Source: Candidatus Hermodarchaeota archaeon
GTDB lineage: Archaea; Asgardarchaeota; Heimdallarchaeia; Hodarchaeales; Hodarchaeaceae
Assembly: GCA_048886185.1 (NCBI GenBank)
Contig: JBHLKY010000032.1
Coordinates: forward strand, 1 to 32,000
Direction of reading: 5' to 3'
Length of the DNA: 32,000 nt
Part shown: positions 3,261-31,422 of the stretch, in pieces
Layout of the letters: every line of letters starts with the position of its first letter
Position numbering within the stretch: position 1 is the stretch's first letter
Made by a program: the position numbers and the translations under genes
Notes under the pieces: model-generated
Seen by the model: only the letters and a program-made list of their open reading frames with translations
The model's database searches: none
What the model was told of the DNA's origin: nothing

Positions 3261-3600
3261 TCACCTTAGAATAGGTAAACAGTAGTTTTCACTGTTCATA
3301 GAAAATGTCTTAGGAAGAGGTTTTTTGAAGTTATGCATAGAAATGAAGTAAACAACACTGTACTTGTTAGAAATAAAAAAGCATCTCGAAGAACATAGAC
3401 AATTACTGCCATATATCTTCCCCCCGATAATCCAACAACGAGCATAGAAGCAGAGAATTACAAATAGCGAACCTAAGAATAGCAGCAAAGACTATTAGAG
3501 CATGAAAAATATTTTTCCTTGTAATTATCCCCTTTTTTCAGCAGATTGGACAAAAATTCGCAGATCCATTCTCTGTACCACATTCAGGATATGTATTCAT
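3261..3600 (-). pseudogene. Decayed zinc-ribbon plus transmembrane protein
   Basis: ATG at 3600 (AAGGAA upstream) gives MNTYPECGTENGSANFCPIC, then TGA (3540-3538), then KKGIITRKNIFHALIVFAAIL. This matches the CPxCG-x-N-xx-A-xFCPxCG zinc ribbon with C>Y and G>stop. Further hydrophobic segments continue in the other two frames. Confidence 0.55.
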
Positions 3601-3710
3601 AATATATTCCTTCTTAATTCAAGGGTGAGATTGGGTACTCTGTTTAAATCCTCGGAATTCTTATGAGAAGTATAGAACACTTTTAAAACAATCTTAGTGT
3701 CAGTTGTTGA

Positions 3711-5696
3711 TTAAAGTTTATTATTAATAATGAAATGGATAATATGGGCTGAAAAATTCATTATATCATTAGGAATCGATTGTAAATTTAAATCACTTAT
3801 TCTAATAAATAATTCCTGTATTGTTATATCTTCATGCACCATTACTTCAGAGATAACCTTTTCATCCTTGAAAAACTGAATTAATACTTCTTGTTTTATT
3901 TTTTCAACTTTAAAGTACAAATCACCATTATAAGGAAATACAAATCTATTTCCATCAACCTCAACTTCCAAAACTAGTGGTAACTCAATAAAATTTCCTT
4001 TAATACTTAAATTGCTTGTAGTGGTGATGTTATCATCACACAGCTTCTGCAATAAGCCATGAATAATATTGGCTGCTATGTTTAACGAACATAGACCTGT
4101 TTCATGAAAGAAACCAAGAGCATGTAGACTCATCTCAAAAGCTAAAAGATATTTTAGTTCATCAATTGAGATGGTATCAGGAACCATAGAAGAACTCAAT
4201 AAGTCTCCATTCGAATAAAATGTTAAGTGCGCGTTAAATTCCACTATTTCAGCATGAACACGAAGATCTTTCAAAGCAGGTAGGTGAATTGCTCCAGATT
4301 CAATACCAGTCTGAATCATGATTGGAATTTGTACGGAAGTGAATTCTTTTCTTTCAAATGGAATTGTCACCTCTTTTTTGCGGGCAAGTGCTTCCATTTT
4401 AGGTGTAATAAAGTAAAGATTAGCAATTGCTTTAACTGGCATCATTGGTCGTTCAATAGCATAGATGAGAAACTTTATTAACTCTCTTTCGGCAATTCCT
4501 CCTTCTATATATGCAGCGAAAATGTCTAAAATACGATCATGGTATAAAGCGTCAACTTCCAATCCTTTGGATTTGAGGAAAGGTATATACTTCAATAGAA
4601 CCTTTAACACAATTGGAATCCGAATTCCTGATGCTGCAGATAATTCAAAAACAACATCATAACCTAGATCTACGATTGCTGTAGCTTGATCATGTTTAAT
4701 GTTATAAAAATTTACCAACTGACTTATTCGCTCATTGGGAGTTGTTGGTTTGAAAACTGGTAATGTTGCTGTTTTTACTGCTGGTTCCGTGGTTATTGAC
4801 TCAATAGGTTCGATAGCCAAATCTTCTAGATGTTTGGTATATAAATCCTCAATTTTTTCTTCTTCATTTGCTTGATTATCTTCATTATAAAGTGAGGTTT
4901 CTGTATCTATGGAGTTGATAGAAGGTCGCATTGCTTGCTGCATTAAGACTTGTAGCTTATTTAGTATCTCAGGATCACCTGCGGTCTTCAAAAATTCTTT
5001 TGTAGATGAAATGGAAACATCTTCATCCACAACAGGTTTTCGTAGAGTCATATCTTCTTTTGAATACTCTTCAATTTGACCAATCGTCCGTCCTTCTGTA
5101 AACTCACTATTGGTTAAATTCGGAATTGTTAATTCAAAGATTCTTCCAAAAGCATCAATTACTGTCTTTGGTTTATATATTGTTGTCCTAAAGAAGCAAA
5201 GCTCTCTTGTTGAGCATTCAAGTTGAAATTGCTCTTTTAGCTGAGCATGAATCGACTCATAATTTGGTAATCGTTTTACTAGGTCATTCTTATGAAGAAA
5301 AACGAATAGATTTGCTTGAGGAGAATATTTCTGTAAATTTTTAAGACAGGAGGAAAAGTACTGAATAGCATTGTTTCTTGTCGTTTTATTAGCAACATCT
5401 ACTAAAAATATGAAATTTTTTACTGAACTAAAGATAAATGGAGAGAAATTGTTTAGAAATCGCTTTATGAAGATTTTTTGACCACCCAAATCGACTATAG
5501 TTATAGGAGTACCCTTGATAGAAACAGACATTCGCTCATAGTTAATTGTCGCACTTAAGCGATCAACCTCTTTCGTTTGTTGTTTCAGAAAGAAAATGCG
5601 TTTTACAGCTGTTTTACCTGCCTCAGATAATCCTGCTATTAATATTTTATATCCAAGCTTTGTTGAAATATCAGATTCAGTGACCCATTCAGACAT
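3711..5696 (-). CDS. RagA/Gtr1-like small GTPase (aa ~15-194) fused to a ~470-aa C-terminal extension
   Basis: G1 GLSEAGKT, G2 RLSATINYE, G3 DLGGQ, G4 FLHKND, G5 FRTTIY. The His-containing G4 and the SCL..SP.A..F...HK.D segment are Rag-family hallmarks (comparison recalled, not searched). Confidence 0.85.
   Translation of the reverse strand: MSEWVTESDISTKLGYKILIAGLSEAGKTAVKRIFFLKQQTKEVDRLSATINYERMSVSIKGTPITIVDLGGQKIFIKRFLNNFSPFIFSSVKNFIFLVDVANKTTRNNAIQYFSSCLKNLQKYSPQANLFVFLHKNDLVKRLPNYESIHAQLKEQFQLECSTRELCFFRTTIYKPKTVIDAFGRIFELTIPNLTNSEFTEGRTIGQIEEYSKEDMTLRKPVVDEDVSISSTKEFLKTAGDPEILNKLQVLMQQAMRPSINSIDTETSLYNEDNQANEEEKIEDLYTKHLEDLAIEPIESITTEPAVKTATLPVFKPTTPNERISQLVNFYNIKHDQATAIVDLGYDVVFELSAASGIRIPIVLKVLLKYIPFLKSKGLEVDALYHDRILDIFAAYIEGGIAERELIKFLIYAIERPMMPVKAIANLYFITPKMEALARKKEVTIPFERKEFTSVQIPIMIQTGIESGAIHLPALKDLRVHAEIVEFNAHLTFYSNGDLLSSSMVPDTISIDELKYLLAFEMSLHALGFFHETGLCSLNIAANIIHGLLQKLCDDNITTTSNLSIKGNFIELPLVLEVEVDGNRFVFPYNGDLYFKVEKIKQEVLIQFFKDEKVISEVMVHEDITIQELFIRISDLNLQSIPNDIMNFSAHIIHFIINNKL
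3798..4334 (-). repeat. Protein-level tandem repeat: two 64-aa units (aa 455-518 and 570-633) in the GTPase C-terminus
   Basis: Gapless hand alignment of VQIPIMIQ...LTFYSNGDLLSSSMVPDTISIDELKYLL against IELPLVLE...IQFFKDEKVISEVMVHEDITIQELFIRI gives 13/64 identities and a conserved hydrophobic pattern. Units lie at 4143-4334 and 3798-3989. Confidence 0.6.
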
Positions 5697-13257: not shown

Positions 13258-14661
13258 ATGAAAGAAGTGCGATTCACTAAAGGTTTTTTATGGGGTGCTG
13301 CAACTTCAAGCTATCAAATCGAAGGAGCATGGAATGAGGACGGGAAGGGGGAGAGTCTATGGGATTATATATGCCACAATCTGGGAATTGTAGCAAGTAA
13401 TGATACAGGAGATATTGCTTGTGATCATTATCATCGTTACAAAGAAGATGTGGCATTAATGAAAGAGATGAATCTGAAAGCCTATAGATTTTCTATTTCA
13501 TGGCCAAGAATTTTCCCTACTGGTCGAGGTGACGCGAATCAAAAAGGTGTGGATTTCTATGACAGGTTAATTGATGAGTTATGGAAATATGAGATCGAAC
13601 CAGTAGTTACGCTATATCATTGGGATCTTCCACTGGATTTGCAAAGTATCGGTGGCTGGACAAATCCTGAAGTAGTCGAAGCTTTTGTTGAATACGCAAA
13701 ATTAATGTTCAATCATTTTGGTGATCGTGTAAAGATGTGGATCACATTTAATGAACCCCAAATCTTCACACTTCTTTACTATTCGCTCGGATTTCTACAA
13801 GAAGGAATCCCAGGAGGTTTTCAGGCTTCTCATCTAGTCAATGTTTCACATGCAAAAGCTGTTCAAGAATATCGTCAAAGTGCTTATTCAGATGGAAAGA
13901 TCGGAATAACTCTCAATTTAAATACTGTATATCCAAAAACTGGCTCAGACATCGATGGACAGGCAACGAAGATTGTGGATAGTCTAATAAATCGCTGGTT
14001 TTTAGACCCAGTTTTAAAAGGATCTTATCCAATGGAAATTCTGAAAGTTCTCCAACAAAAGTTTAATATTTCATTTCTAGAAGAAGATTTATCTCTACTG
14101 AGATCTGTTTTACCAATGGACTTCTTGGGAGTGAATAACTATTCTTGTAATAGAGTTGGAGTGTCAAAACCTGAAGACCTTTCTGATATCATGTCATTTC
14201 TCGAAAAATACTTTTCAGAAGTAATAGTAGGAGATGAAAAGAAGGAGGATGGACGTGAGTATTCTGAAATGGGTTGGGAAATTTGTCCAGATGGTTTCTA
14301 TGATTTATTAATCAATATTGATAGGGATTATGGTCATCCCCTTTTGTACATTACTGAAAATGGAGCTGCATGCAAAGATGACAGAATAATTGATCAAATT
14401 GTTCACGATGACGACCGGATTAGCTACTTGAAAAGATACCTTAAAGCTGCAAATAGAGCTATTAACAAAGGAGTGAATTTAAGGGGTTATTTTGTTTGGT
14501 CTTTTCTAGATAATTTTGAGTGGCTTCACGGGTACTCAAAACGTTTTGGGTTGATTCGTGTCAATTATGAAACACAAGAACGAATATGGAAGAAGAGTGC
14601 TCGTTGGTACCGTGATGTTATTCAGAATAACGGTTTTATGTTTAGTAAGGTTCAAAAATAG
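13258..14661 (+). CDS. Glycoside hydrolase family 1 beta-glucosidase
   Basis: FLWGAATSSYQIEGA, DHYHRYKEDV, YRFSISWPRI, TLYHWDLP, TFNEP (acid/base Glu), YITENG (nucleophile Glu), WSFLDNFEW. No signal peptide. Confidence 0.97.
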   Translation: MKEVRFTKGFLWGAATSSYQIEGAWNEDGKGESLWDYICHNLGIVASNDTGDIACDHYHRYKEDVALMKEMNLKAYRFSISWPRIFPTGRGDANQKGVDFYDRLIDELWKYEIEPVVTLYHWDLPLDLQSIGGWTNPEVVEAFVEYAKLMFNHFGDRVKMWITFNEPQIFTLLYYSLGFLQEGIPGGFQASHLVNVSHAKAVQEYRQSAYSDGKIGITLNLNTVYPKTGSDIDGQATKIVDSLINRWFLDPVLKGSYPMEILKVLQQKFNISFLEEDLSLLRSVLPMDFLGVNNYSCNRVGVSKPEDLSDIMSFLEKYFSEVIVGDEKKEDGREYSEMGWEICPDGFYDLLINIDRDYGHPLLYITENGAACKDDRIIDQIVHDDDRISYLKRYLKAANRAINKGVNLRGYFVWSFLDNFEWLHGYSKRFGLIRVNYETQERIWKKSARWYRDVIQNNGFMFSKVQK

Positions 14662-26166: not shown

Positions 26167-28599
26167 ATGATAGACTTTACCGAAACAAAAGAGAAAATAA
26201 CAATCCAAGGAGATAAACTCAAAATTGAGATATCTCAATTAACAAGGAAGGTAAAAATTTCATCTTTGATAACAAATTTCAGTCTCGATAGAATAGAACC
26301 AGCAATAAATCTTTTAATAAATAATAAAATAATTACATTATTACCAGTAGGTAGAAGCACCAATTCAGTTATAGAAACTTTAATTTTAGATGAACTTGGA
26401 ATAGGAAAACAATTTTTAATAAACCTAGTATTTAATAACACTCATGATAAGAAGAATATTACTATAGAAGCTCAATTAGCGATTATTTTATATGAAGACT
26501 CGGATTTTTGTATACTTAAACTTATTATTCCAAAGGAAGCTTCAAAATTTCTAAATTATTCATTACACTCTTTAGCACCATTAAGAATTACTGATGGAAC
26601 TATAATTTTAAATGAGGAAAATAAGACTCATCCTGAGAAAATCACTTTTTTTGAACAAGGTTTTCAAAGCTGGAGCTATACAAAGACCCGTTTATTTAAT
26701 GAAGCCTTCGAACCTATATTTATTGATGTTTTTGCATCTATCAACCAAAACAAGGATTCAATAATCACTGGACGATATATATCAGAATTTATAACTGCTA
26801 TTTCTGATATAGAGAGTAAAGGAAGTTTAATCATAGGTTTTTGCACATTAGCAGACACCTACTCTCGAATTGTAATGGATCACTTAATTGGGCCATCAAA
26901 AATTTCTTGGTTAACCGCATATTCTCAGTTTGATGGCATTCCAATTAATCAATTGAAAAAACAGCCAGTTTGTTCTGAAGAATTATTCATCAGTTTTGAA
27001 CCGCGTTTTCAAGGATACTTAGGATTGATTAAATATGCTGAAGTTACAGGGAAGAAGATGAATGTAACGATCCACCAGCCCAAAGTAGGATGGTGTAGCT
27101 GGTATTATTACTATACTAATATCTCTAATAAAGAGTTGCTTTCAAATGTAAAATACTTTAAACAATCACCAGAAATCTCTGTCGATATGTTACAACTTGA
27201 TGATGGATATTTCACAGCAATTGGAGATTATACTTCGTTTAATGATAAATTTTCAAATGGCCTTTCTGATTTTGTTACTTTAACCCATGAACAAGGAAAA
27301 ACAGCAGGATTATGGATTGCTCCATTTTTTGCAGCAGAAAATTCAGAAATATATAGCAAACATCCAGAATGGTTTTTAAAATCGGTAATTGATAACGAAC
27401 CGTTACCTGTTTGTTATAACTGGGATCAAACCGAATATGCTCTAGATCTTACTAATTCAGAGGTTCAAAATCACATAAAAACACTCATTCAAACTATAAT
27501 AGATGAATGGCATTTTGATTTCATAAAAATTGACTTTCTATATGCTGCTTCCGTTTTTGAAAGTGACTATCTCGTAAAGGGATTGACTCGTGCTCAGATC
27601 TATCGAAAAGGACTCGAAATAATTCGACAAAAGATGGGGAAGGAGAAATATCTATTAGGATGTGGAGCGCCTTTGGGCCCAAGCATTGGACTTGTGGATG
27701 CAATGCGTATCAGTGAAGATACTAAAGAGCTATGGGACACTGGAGAGAATCCGATATATGGGTATCCTTGTTTAAAATACGCCTTGATTGGGAGTATTAA
27801 TCGTTCGTTTATGCATAATAATTTTTGGGTTAATGATCCTGATTGTCTAATTCTACGGAAGAAAGAAAGCGAGTTAACATTTGAAGAAGTAAAACTGCAG
27901 TGCACGATTTTTGGATTAACAGGGGGCCAGCTATTATTATCAGATGATATGACAAGGCTTGAGGAGGATAGATTAAGATTAGCTTTAAAGCTAATGCCTC
28001 CTTATGCAGAATCTGCAATCCCAATTGATACTTTATATGAATCCTTTCCCATACATTATTTGTTAGAAACAGAAACAGAAATAGGATCAAGAGCTCTCCT
28101 AGCTGTCATTAATTGGAATAATGAAGTTGTTAATCGAAACTTAGTTTTAAAAGATATTCTCACAGCTAGCATGGGATCCTCTTCTCAATTTCTTGTTTTT
28201 GACTGGTGGCAAGAAGCATTATTAGGATGTTTCAGTTATGAAGATTCAATTATACCTCTTGAGATCCCACCACATGGATGTCGTTATCTGGGGATCATTC
28301 CCTATGAAGATTCAACACTACCTCTACTGCTTTCATCCACTTTGCACATTACTCAAGGATGTAAAGAGATAAAAAAGCTAAAAATAAGCTCTAATTCCAT
28401 CGAACTAGGCCTTAATCAGCGAGGATTGCACACAGGGGAATTATTTTTTTTATTTCCCCAGAATACGAAAGAGATTTCAGCAGAATACCCAATGGCTAAA
28501 CAATACAATGAGTGGGGAATCTTATGTCGTCTAAAAATCAGATTATTAGATCAAAAAGATATCAAAATAGAGTTTAAATCAATAGATAAAGGGGAGTAA
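26167..28599 (+). CDS. Glycoside hydrolase family 36 alpha-galactosidase
   Basis: GWCSWY, LQLDDGY, GLWIAPF, IKIDFLY (nucleophile Asp), GCGAPL, MRISEDT (acid/base Asp), NDPDCL. Confidence 0.88.
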   Translation: MIDFTETKEKITIQGDKLKIEISQLTRKVKISSLITNFSLDRIEPAINLLINNKIITLLPVGRSTNSVIETLILDELGIGKQFLINLVFNNTHDKKNITIEAQLAIILYEDSDFCILKLIIPKEASKFLNYSLHSLAPLRITDGTIILNEENKTHPEKITFFEQGFQSWSYTKTRLFNEAFEPIFIDVFASINQNKDSIITGRYISEFITAISDIESKGSLIIGFCTLADTYSRIVMDHLIGPSKISWLTAYSQFDGIPINQLKKQPVCSEELFISFEPRFQGYLGLIKYAEVTGKKMNVTIHQPKVGWCSWYYYYTNISNKELLSNVKYFKQSPEISVDMLQLDDGYFTAIGDYTSFNDKFSNGLSDFVTLTHEQGKTAGLWIAPFFAAENSEIYSKHPEWFLKSVIDNEPLPVCYNWDQTEYALDLTNSEVQNHIKTLIQTIIDEWHFDFIKIDFLYAASVFESDYLVKGLTRAQIYRKGLEIIRQKMGKEKYLLGCGAPLGPSIGLVDAMRISEDTKELWDTGENPIYGYPCLKYALIGSINRSFMHNNFWVNDPDCLILRKKESELTFEEVKLQCTIFGLTGGQLLLSDDMTRLEEDRLRLALKLMPPYAESAIPIDTLYESFPIHYLLETETEIGSRALLAVINWNNEVVNRNLVLKDILTASMGSSSQFLVFDWWQEALLGCFSYEDSIIPLEIPPHGCRYLGIIPYEDSTLPLLLSSTLHITQGCKEIKKLKISSNSIELGLNQRGLHTGELFFLFPQNTKEISAEYPMAKQYNEWGILCRLKIRLLDQKDIKIEFKSIDKGE

Positions 28600-29247
28600 T
28601 CGTCTGGTGCGTTTGATATAGGATTTATATTCATCACTAAACTCTTCTGAAAGTATTTTCTCCTCTTGATCCATTCGAGGCTTAATCAAGAGGAAACTGT
28701 AAAAAATACCCAATAATGGTACAATCAAACTCCGAAAAGCTAATTCGGTACCAAAACCTACCATAGCTCCACCAAGATAGATTGGATGTCGAATATATCT
28801 ATAAATTCCACGAGTTACAAGCTGGTGGTCATCTTCGATAACAAGCATTCCACTGCCATATTTTCCAAGTTGAATTCGACTAAAAACCTGAATAATTCCA
28901 CCAATAATTATAAAGATGATTCCAATAACAAATACAATGATATTATTCCAAATTGGAAAATAGTCTTTGATCAGTAATTGGTTTTCGATATAAGCTAGAA
29001 TAAAGATAAATGGGTTAATTAAGAATCCAATCATCAAAAGAAGTGAGTATTTGTTGGCAATTTCTTCTTTTTCTGAGAAAGGTCTTGAGAATGAATCGAT
29101 ATAAGCTACAATATACATAAGAATAATTGCTATATGACCAATATCACTGTAAATATCTGGTGAGAGAAGAATAAACCAAATATTGTAGTAAACTACATAC
29201 CACAGAGTGGGAAAGCCAATTTTTCTAATAACATGAATGGGCTTCAA
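28579..29247 (-). CDS. Isoprenylcysteine carboxyl methyltransferase (ICMT/PEMT) family membrane methyltransferase
   Basis: About 5-6 TMs, HQLVTRGIYRYIRHPIYLG, R...EEKIL...F.DEY..Y..RT.RLLPFIY. TTG start with GAGGT upstream. Its 3' end overlaps the convergent GH36 by 21 bp. Confidence 0.85.
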   Translation of the reverse strand: MKPIHVIRKIGFPTLWYVVYYNIWFILLSPDIYSDIGHIAIILMYIVAYIDSFSRPFSEKEEIANKYSLLLMIGFLINPFIFILAYIENQLLIKDYFPIWNNIIVFVIGIIFIIIGGIIQVFSRIQLGKYGSGMLVIEDDHQLVTRGIYRYIRHPIYLGGAMVGFGTELAFRSLIVPLLGIFYSFLLIKPRMDQEEKILSEEFSDEYKSYIKRTRRLLPFIY

Positions 29248-30930: not shown

Positions 30931-31422
30931 ATGAGAAACAATAAATTCATTACTTGGGTCATCCCAGGAAAGCTGGCAAGAAGTCCATTTCCACTCTTCC
31001 AAGAATTATCTACATTAGTTGAACTAAACATATTTTTAGTAATCAATCTAACCTCTCAGGGAATACCAAACAGACTTGGAAATCAACTAAGGGCTTCTGG
31101 TATTAGGATTAAACGTCTGCCAATCCCTGATTTTGGCACTCCTAATCAAAACACTATCAATCAGTACCTTCAAATGGTTTGTGAAACAATACTGCAGAAC
31201 CAAGCTGTTTTAACACATTGTATTGCTGGTTGTGGACGTACAGGAACAATGATTGGATTATTCTTAATTACCCATGGATACTCTCCCCTAGTTACTCTAG
31301 AGACCATTCATAAAATATTGGGTAAAGGGTGTCCAGAAACTGAAGAACAAATAGATCTACTTAAGCAATATAGAAAGAAATGTCCAAATTTCCGTCAGTG
31401 TAATGGTAAGATTTCAGCGTAG
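30931..31422 (+). CDS. Dual-specificity/protein-tyrosine phosphatase (CX5R), CDC14/CDKN3-like small archaeal type
   Basis: WVIPGKLA, PIPDFGTP (general-acid Asp loop), HCIAGCGRTG, ETEEQ. Confidence 0.9.
   Translation: MRNNKFITWVIPGKLARSPFPLFQELSTLVELNIFLVINLTSQGIPNRLGNQLRASGIRIKRLPIPDFGTPNQNTINQYLQMVCETILQNQAVLTHCIAGCGRTGTMIGLFLITHGYSPLVTLETIHKILGKGCPETEEQIDLLKQYRKKCPNFRQCNGKISA

Follow-up and report, generated by a model that had tools for sequence, protein, structure and literature searches.

Rag GTPases are eukaryotic signature proteins used in reconstructing the origin of the eukaryotic cell, and canonical Rags dimerise and dock through their roadblock domain. The window analysed here, a stretch of 32,000 nucleotides from an Asgard archaeal contig, contains an open reading frame that a sequence-only reading had described as a RagA/Gtr1-like GTPase in which the roadblock is replaced by a large C-terminal module, possibly an undescribed signalling architecture connected with how TORC1 nutrient sensing arose. 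This raises the questions of what this module is, whether it still takes the role of a roadblock, and whether it has any bearing on the eukaryotic system.

In the literature, Asgard Rag-like G domains are fused to roadblock and/or longin domains (PMC10933270; Liu et al., preprint), and a RagGtr clade has been described in Asgard archaea (Vargova et al., preprint). We found no literature on a layout consisting of a G domain, a GatE-like domain and a repeat, nor on a relation of such a protein to GatE, so that the architecture does appear to be undescribed.

A Rag-type G domain with another continuation

The minus strand of the window is open between positions 3711 and 5696 and encodes a protein of 661 amino acids (aa) followed by a stop, which we call P0001; the plus strand of the same interval has no open frame and many stops. 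The motifs that had been read from the letters (GLSEAGKT, RLSATINYE, DLGGQ, SCLKNLQKYSPQANLFVFLHKND, FRTTIY and TIPNL) are all present in the translation. More than 100 independent full-length sequences share the architecture, which excludes a chance open reading frame, an assembly chimera or a misassembly. Thus, the window carries a real Asgard gene for a Rag-type GTP switch, whose parts are listed in Table 1. Thirteen DNA sequencing runs, from sediment and estuary metagenomes, are listed as containing the sequence, and no RNA run is among those listed, which is evidence neither for nor against.

Table 1. Parts of the long Rag-family gene in the window; amino acid (aa) numbers refer to P0001
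Feature	Position in window	Strand	Basis
Whole CDS, long Rag-family GTPase P0001	3711..5696	(-)	open frame; >100 full-length homologues
RagA/Gtr1-type G domain, aa 14-195	5112..5657	(-)	Pfam; PDB ranking; motifs invariant in 45 members
Conserved post-G segment, aa 196-210 (NSEFTEGRTIGQIEE)	5067..5111	(-)	column conservation 0.75
Acidic linker, aa 211-329, poorly conserved	4710..5066	(-)	charge; Glu content; column conservation
Six-helix GatE-like domain, aa 330-445, corresponding to the N-terminal part of the GatB_Yqey region	4362..4709	(-)	
Repeat 1, aa 448-559, two helices after five strands	4020..4355	(-)	model; hhalign; conservation
Repeat 2, aa 563-661, topology as repeat 1; protein terminates here	3714..4010	(-)	hhalign; model

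The assignment of the G domain to the Rag/Gtr type, as opposed to Arf, Roc or generic prokaryotic GTPases, is borne out by both the Pfam scores and the ranking of PDB relatives. Residues 17-195 match Gtr1_RagA with an E value of 7e-32 and 111 bits (cut-off 22), against 48.7 bits for Arf and 32 bits for SRPRB, while MMR_HSR1, Ras and Roc score below SRPRB, with Ras and Roc under their own Pfam cut-offs. The best PDB relatives are yeast Gtr1 (E 1e-20) and human RagA (2e-20), followed at a distance by RagC/Gtr2 (about 5e-7 to 1e-6) and Arl2 (about 2e-6). Membership of the Arf family was rejected on the difference between 48.7 and 111 bits and on the E values of the Arf/Arl chains in the PDB, which are 2e-6 or worse. 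The name under which relatives are found at NCBI is "ADP-ribosylation factor-like protein".

The G motifs comprise G1 GLSEAGKT (aa 22-29), the switch I residue T50, G3 DLGGQ (aa 69-73), G4 HKND and G5 RTTIY, the last two being of the Rag forms HKxD and T[ST]I[WY] and aligning with the corresponding motifs of Gtr1/RagA. In an alignment of 45 family members, the P-loop GLSEAGKT, T50, DLGGQ, H135-K136-x-D138 and R170-T171-x-I173 are invariant, and because of this conservation the G domain looks like that of a functioning Rag-type GTPase, although the activity itself is an inference.

The likeness to eukaryotic RagA/B and yeast Gtr1 (PF04670) extends over the G domain from end to end (aa 12-198, E about 1e-20) and includes G4 HKxD, G5 RT[ST]I[WY] and an "IPN" at the exit of the domain. 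The eukaryotic proteins then continue into a C-terminal roadblock, whereas in P0001 the remaining 465 aa or so comprise the linker, the GatE-like helical domain and the tandem alpha/beta repeats. The claim that the roadblock is missing after the G domain thus holds: the Gtr1_RagA alignment stops at profile position 181 of 232, the acidic linker comes next, and profile searches detect no roadblock. Likewise, the module was correctly described as lacking a Pfam family, since nothing is matched beyond aa 195, including when the linker and the single repeats are scanned separately, and 46 C-terminal modules of the family have no Pfam family in common.

The region between the G domain and the module had been read as one acidic low-complexity linker, and this needs to be qualified. 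The acidic and variable character applies to aa 211-329, which have a net charge of -14, 14 % Glu and a column conservation of 0.2-0.45, and whose length differs among family members; this stretch is presumably flexible or disordered. The first 15 or so residues (aa 196-210) are conserved, with G206, E209 and E210 invariant in the 45 members, and so is a motif at aa 241-255 (DPEILNKLQVLMQQA), which has a column conservation of 0.63.

A helical domain related to GatE

An AlphaFold2 model covering aa 330-661, for which 46 homologues were used, is confident (mean pLDDT 90); six helices come first, and then two units, each with five strands and two helices. The helical block had been recognised as helical, which is correct, and as unknown, which it is not: by profile comparison it shares ancestry with the helical domain of archaeal GatE, that is, with the N-terminal half of PF02637 of the GatE/GatB tRNA-dependent amidotransferases. 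In a profile-profile comparison (hhalign) with 14 Asgard GatE sequences, the block reaches a Prob of 98.6 % and an E value of 1.1e-15 over 100 columns, and its profile matches residues 470-566 of Pyrococcus abyssi GatE among PDB sequences with an E value of 1.7e-4. The profile of the whole module also picks GatE in ten genomes, including that of the window (E 2e-12). The block is nearer to GatE than to GatB, for which the hhalign Prob is only 19 %. It should be added that the homology is visible only from the profile of the long-Rag family toward GatE, because the PF02637 model, when run over the proteins of the window's own genome, detects GatE and misses the long Rags.

What has been taken up in the long Rags corresponds only to the helical domain, since the alignment to GatE covers columns 6-106 of 165. 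GatE and GatB possess a catalytic cradle and a YqeY-like tail domain, both of which are absent from P0001, and neither GatB_N nor GatB_Yqey is matched by Pfam. The tail domain is the part of GatB/GatE implicated in recognition of the tRNA D-loop (PMC2811023), and its loss is relevant to the idea that the GatE-derived domain binds tRNA and thereby links a Rag-type switch to the status of aminoacyl-tRNA or of translation. This idea, which draws on the homology to the GatE helical domain and on a Lys-rich stretch that directly follows this domain in most relatives, appears improbable to us: apart from the missing D-loop-binding part, the helical domain is about neutral, the repeats are acidic, and the Lys-rich stretch is weak in P0001. 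Given the missing tail and cradle and these charges, tRNA binding by the helical domain of P0001 is possible, but we do not favour it.

In its widest form, the idea would be that the GatE-derived domain and the new alpha/beta pseudo-dimer described below together couple aminoacyl-tRNA synthesis or the translation state to Rag-type signalling, as an unrecognised class of Rags. We regard this as quite improbable. If true, it would constitute a prokaryotic precedent for the coupling of eukaryotic Rag GTPases to aminoacyl-tRNA synthetases, and would place a new class of Rag switch in the archaeal lineage that has been named as closest to eukaryotes.

A tandem repeat in the place of the roadblock

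The tandem repeat that had been noticed at the C-terminus is real. The two units are distinct in the model, and their profiles match with a Prob of 99.2 % and an E value of 5.5e-20 (hhalign); the duplication is seen by profiles only, as BLASTP gives no alignment between repeat 1 and repeat 2. Repeat 1 is the better conserved copy and contains the invariant N488 and E521. When aa 448-661 are modelled alone, the pLDDT is 92 and the pTM 0.86, the latter indicating a defined packing of the two repeats.

The repeats have no convincing relative in the PDB or the ESM Atlas, which makes them a candidate new fold. Foldseek returned nothing from the PDB at E <= 1e-3 for the model of aa 330-661 or that of aa 448-661. 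In the ESM Atlas, comparison by shape gave TM values of at most 0.36 (normalised by the query), and comparison by language-model features gave no usable match. A cluster annotated as CO_deh_flav_C in the same atlas reached a TM of 0.61, by the row and over repeat 2 alone, and was judged too weak to be retained. Known domains that may come closest are the peptide-binding CCT-like (PF2-like) domain of WNK/OSR1 and, in succinyl-CoA synthetase beta, the ATP-grasp subdomain. The repeats are also unrelated to full-length GatE (hhalign).

Could the repeats nevertheless be an extremely diverged, possibly permuted roadblock or longin pair, in which the C-terminal dimer of Rags has been internalised into one chain by duplication? 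Paired small alpha/beta domains serve Rags and their regulators as platforms (Tran et al. 2024, PMC10933270), the two repeats pack as one unit according to the pTM of 0.86, and the family includes single-repeat forms of about 560 aa, as would be expected of a dimerisation module. We nonetheless consider this unlikely, for reasons of both profile and topology. The repeats lack an N-terminal helix and a helix between strands 2 and 3, and their predicted order, five strands and then two helices, differs from that of roadblock and longin domains. When compared by hhalign with the C-terminal profile of 117 Asgard short Rags, that is, with their roadblock domain, the repeats give a Prob below 1 %, and their profile finds no roadblock among PDB sequences at E <= 10. 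The short-Rag C-terminal profile, which served as a positive control for the latter search, returns roadblock/LC7 chains as its top five PDB matches, the best with an E value of 0.009 and over the full length. Finally, no roadblock, longin or MglB chain occurs among the 50 best matches of three structural searches, a result that does not by itself exclude families outside these lists.

Another possibility is that the C-terminal module regulates its own G domain in cis, as a GAP, a GEF or an autoinhibitor, comparable to MglB or the longin-type GAPs. Pairs of alpha/beta domains are known from the literature to act as GAPs in MglB and in GATOR1/FLCN, and the long flexible linker would let the module fold back onto the G domain. 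The column conservation, 0.75-0.95 in the G domain versus 0.45-0.65 in the module, would fit a module that evolves together with a target that stays fixed. No arginine-finger-like residue is, however, conserved among the invariant residues of the module, which are A338, F350, P372, N488 and E521, and we hold regulation in cis to be doubtful.

The reading that we prefer, and which we consider rather likely, is that P0001 is a functional multi-domain Rag/Gtr GTPase in which the GatE-derived helical domain and a pseudo-dimer of the repeats replace the roadblock as a docking or regulatory platform. In this scheme, the G domain would act as the nucleotide-dependent switch, and the acidic linker would join it flexibly to the helical domain. 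The two homologous alpha/beta domains, which pack in the model into one compact single-chain pseudo-dimer, would form, with the GatE-like helical domain, the platform that takes the place of the roadblock dimer. Because a single-chain pseudo-dimer would thus stand in for the roadblock, the long Rags may serve as a natural experiment on the role of the roadblock dimer, and the repeat domain offers a candidate new fold for structural study.

Long Rags in their genus and genomes

P0001 does not stand alone. Its own genome (4.84 Mb, 96 % complete) encodes three long paralogues, the other two being a form of 740 aa on contig C10 and a single-repeat form of 564 aa on contig C9, and the family has more than 100 public sequences. 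These full-length relatives, at 40-72 % identity, are mostly 710-760 aa long and mostly from Hodarchaeales/Hodarchaeota metagenome-assembled genomes. An exhaustive HMMER search of 1.84 billion proteins with aa 330-661 yielded no more than 35 representative clusters, nearly all of them of the long-Rag family.

We surveyed the architecture with profiles of the module across about 230 genomes of the phylum. Positives were obtained in the window's own genus, in 5 of 6 and in 17 of 21 other genomes. None was obtained in the two genomes from a second family of the same order, in the remaining 59 genomes of the class (61 negatives when that second family is added) or in the other families of a 151-genome sample of the phylum. 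Among the genomes surveyed, the long-Rag family is therefore found only in the genus of the window. The submitters' labels of some relatives, namely Thor-, Odin- and Hermodarchaeota, clash with this outcome; one such discordant label was traced, and the record belongs to the window's genus.

In the phylogenetic tree, P0001 and two relatives (P0002 and P0003) form a clade with 100 % support, which arises on a long stem (0.65) from within the two-repeat forms. The clade lacks a tail of about 40 aa, ending in the helix ETSEKLxxYLxLLExD, that is present in most relatives, and no frameshifted remnant of this tail occurs in any frame downstream of the P0001 stop. P0001 is a diverged paralogue that belongs to a fast-evolving subclade without the C-terminal amphipathic helix of the family.

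These results bear on the proposed link to TORC1 ancestry, according to which the long Rags would represent an ancestral Asgard architecture that leads towards eukaryotic Rag-TORC1 nutrient sensing. A RagA/Gtr1-like G domain would fit such a view, as would a host lineage of the Hodarchaeales type, to which the names of the relatives point. The family is, however, confined to a single genus, the roadblock is kept in eukaryotic Rags as well as in the short Rags of the window's own genome, and P0001 sits on a derived long branch nested inside the family. The genus restriction and the nested long branch point to a lineage-specific elaboration rather than an ancestral state, and we consider the ancestral reading highly improbable; this part of the sequence-only reading is not supported. 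On present evidence, the long Rags do not bear on the origin of TORC1 signalling. What they add is that, in a lineage with members named Hodarchaeales, the Rag G domain was also joined to a piece of GatE, an enzyme related to translation, and to a duplicated domain for which no relative is recognisable.

Short Rags, which are roughly 300 aa long and consist of a G domain and a roadblock, are encoded in the genome of the window as well, in about seven copies. These share the G-domain family and the genome with the long form; in contrast to it, their C-terminal profile finds roadblock/LC7 chains, whereas the long-form repeats find none. The Rag-like architectures GTPase-RB, RB-GTPase and longin-GTPase-RB have been reported from Prometheoarchaeum MKD1 (Tran et al. 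2024, PMC10933270), and the list given there does not include the long one.

Long and short Rags are often neighbours. In other genomes, the form of about 730 aa lies head-to-head with a short Rag of 300 aa, which is adjoined by a conserved protein of 340 aa without Pfam domain (56 % identical between two genomes), and on two contigs a second pair follows, composed of a short Rag and a single-repeat form of about 600 aa. In the window's own genome, the 564-aa form on contig C9 retains its head-to-head short Rag, and the 740-aa form is split from its short Rag and a 345-aa protein, which are both on contig C28. Since typical members are head-to-head with a 300-aa Rag and near the 340-aa protein, the long-Rag family probably works within a multi-Rag system with canonical short Rags. 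The long Rags, the adjacent short Rags and the 340-aa protein would then make up a multi-Rag system that is small enough to be tractable biochemically.

This reading rests on the paralogues, as no Rag gene is found near P0001 or near its closest relatives in two other genomes (three genomes checked). The neighbours of the P0001 gene are ABC-transporter genes and a DUF2284 gene. A complex prediction with full-length P0001 and the short Rag on contig C28, which is orthologous to the usual partner, scored 0.13 (mark 0.32), and this is not evidence in either direction. The absence of the amphipathic helix, together with the missing family neighbourhood in the three genomes checked, suggests that P0001 has an altered or new function. 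One relative, 63 % identical, does have a Rag (307 aa) three genes upstream, and a HEAT-repeat protein and a protein of 339 aa also lie on its upstream side. Giant secreted-type proteins often adjoin the long-Rag loci.

The C-terminal helix of long Rags

Most long Rags (P0004-P0060, relatives of the window's P0001) end, within the last ~40 aa, in a conserved amphipathic helix, 'ETSEKLxxYLxLLExD', and the window's own P0001 lacks it. The L-x3-L-x2-L spacing of this helix is reminiscent of MIT-interacting motifs.

Genes beside long and short Rags

The short Rags that partner long Rags are adjoined by a conserved protein of ~340 aa, in which no Pfam domain was found and whose copies from two genomes share 56 % identity. 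Distant copies of it are also included in the Rag cluster on contig C30 of the genome holding the window, where short Rag-like genes of 309, 318, 334 and 330 aa are accompanied by a 264-aa distant relative of this protein. The giant ORFs flanking Rag gene pairs in several genomes range in size from 2131 to >3100 aa, and some contain Laminin_G_3 and DUF2341; Pfam gives no match for the one in the window's genome. In two genomes, a 1141-aa ORF, a 311-aa ORF and a tubulin/FtsZ-family gene adjoin the 740- or 735-aa long Rag.

Features in the window and at other loci (L-numbers)
Feature	Position	Strand	Remark
Tubulin/FtsZ-family gene, 444 aa	L014:6997-8331	+	beside 740-aa long Rag
Tubulin/FtsZ-family gene, 444 aa	L049:8262-9596	-	beside 735-aa long Rag
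Giant ORF	L013:11077-17472	+	beside Rag gene pair
Giant ORF	L011:1-6606	-	beside Rag gene pair
Giant ORF	L050:1-5514	+	beside Rag gene pair
Giant ORF	L051:8429-14190	+	beside Rag gene pair
~340-aa protein	L049:3498-4538	+	adjoins partner short Rag
~340-aa protein	L051:3759-4781	+	adjoins partner short Rag
~340-aa protein	L006:91-1125	+	adjoins partner short Rag; window's genome
Four clustered short Rag-like genes	L015:7592-11322 and 13575-14567	- and +	window's genome, contig C30
Long-Rag paralogue with C-terminal helix	L014:8379-10601	-	window's genome
ICMT/PEMT-family methyltransferase gene	window 28579-29247	-	
Dual-specificity protein phosphatase gene	window 30931-31422	+	
Very short frame MNTYPECGTENGSANFCPIC, then stop	window about 3540-3610	-	between GTPase and ABC transporter genes
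949-aa ORF	L048:2296-5145	+	genome G007

Other frames in the window and in genome G007

The very short frame MNTYPECGTENGSANFCPIC carries a zinc-ribbon-like CxxC...CxxC pattern, which may be a chance occurrence. In another genome, G007, the 949-aa ORF combines GatB_N and GatB_Yqey in a fusion with an OB fold and with a tRNA synthetase core of class II, Asp/Asn/Lys-type, and looks like a transamidosome-like protein in one chain.
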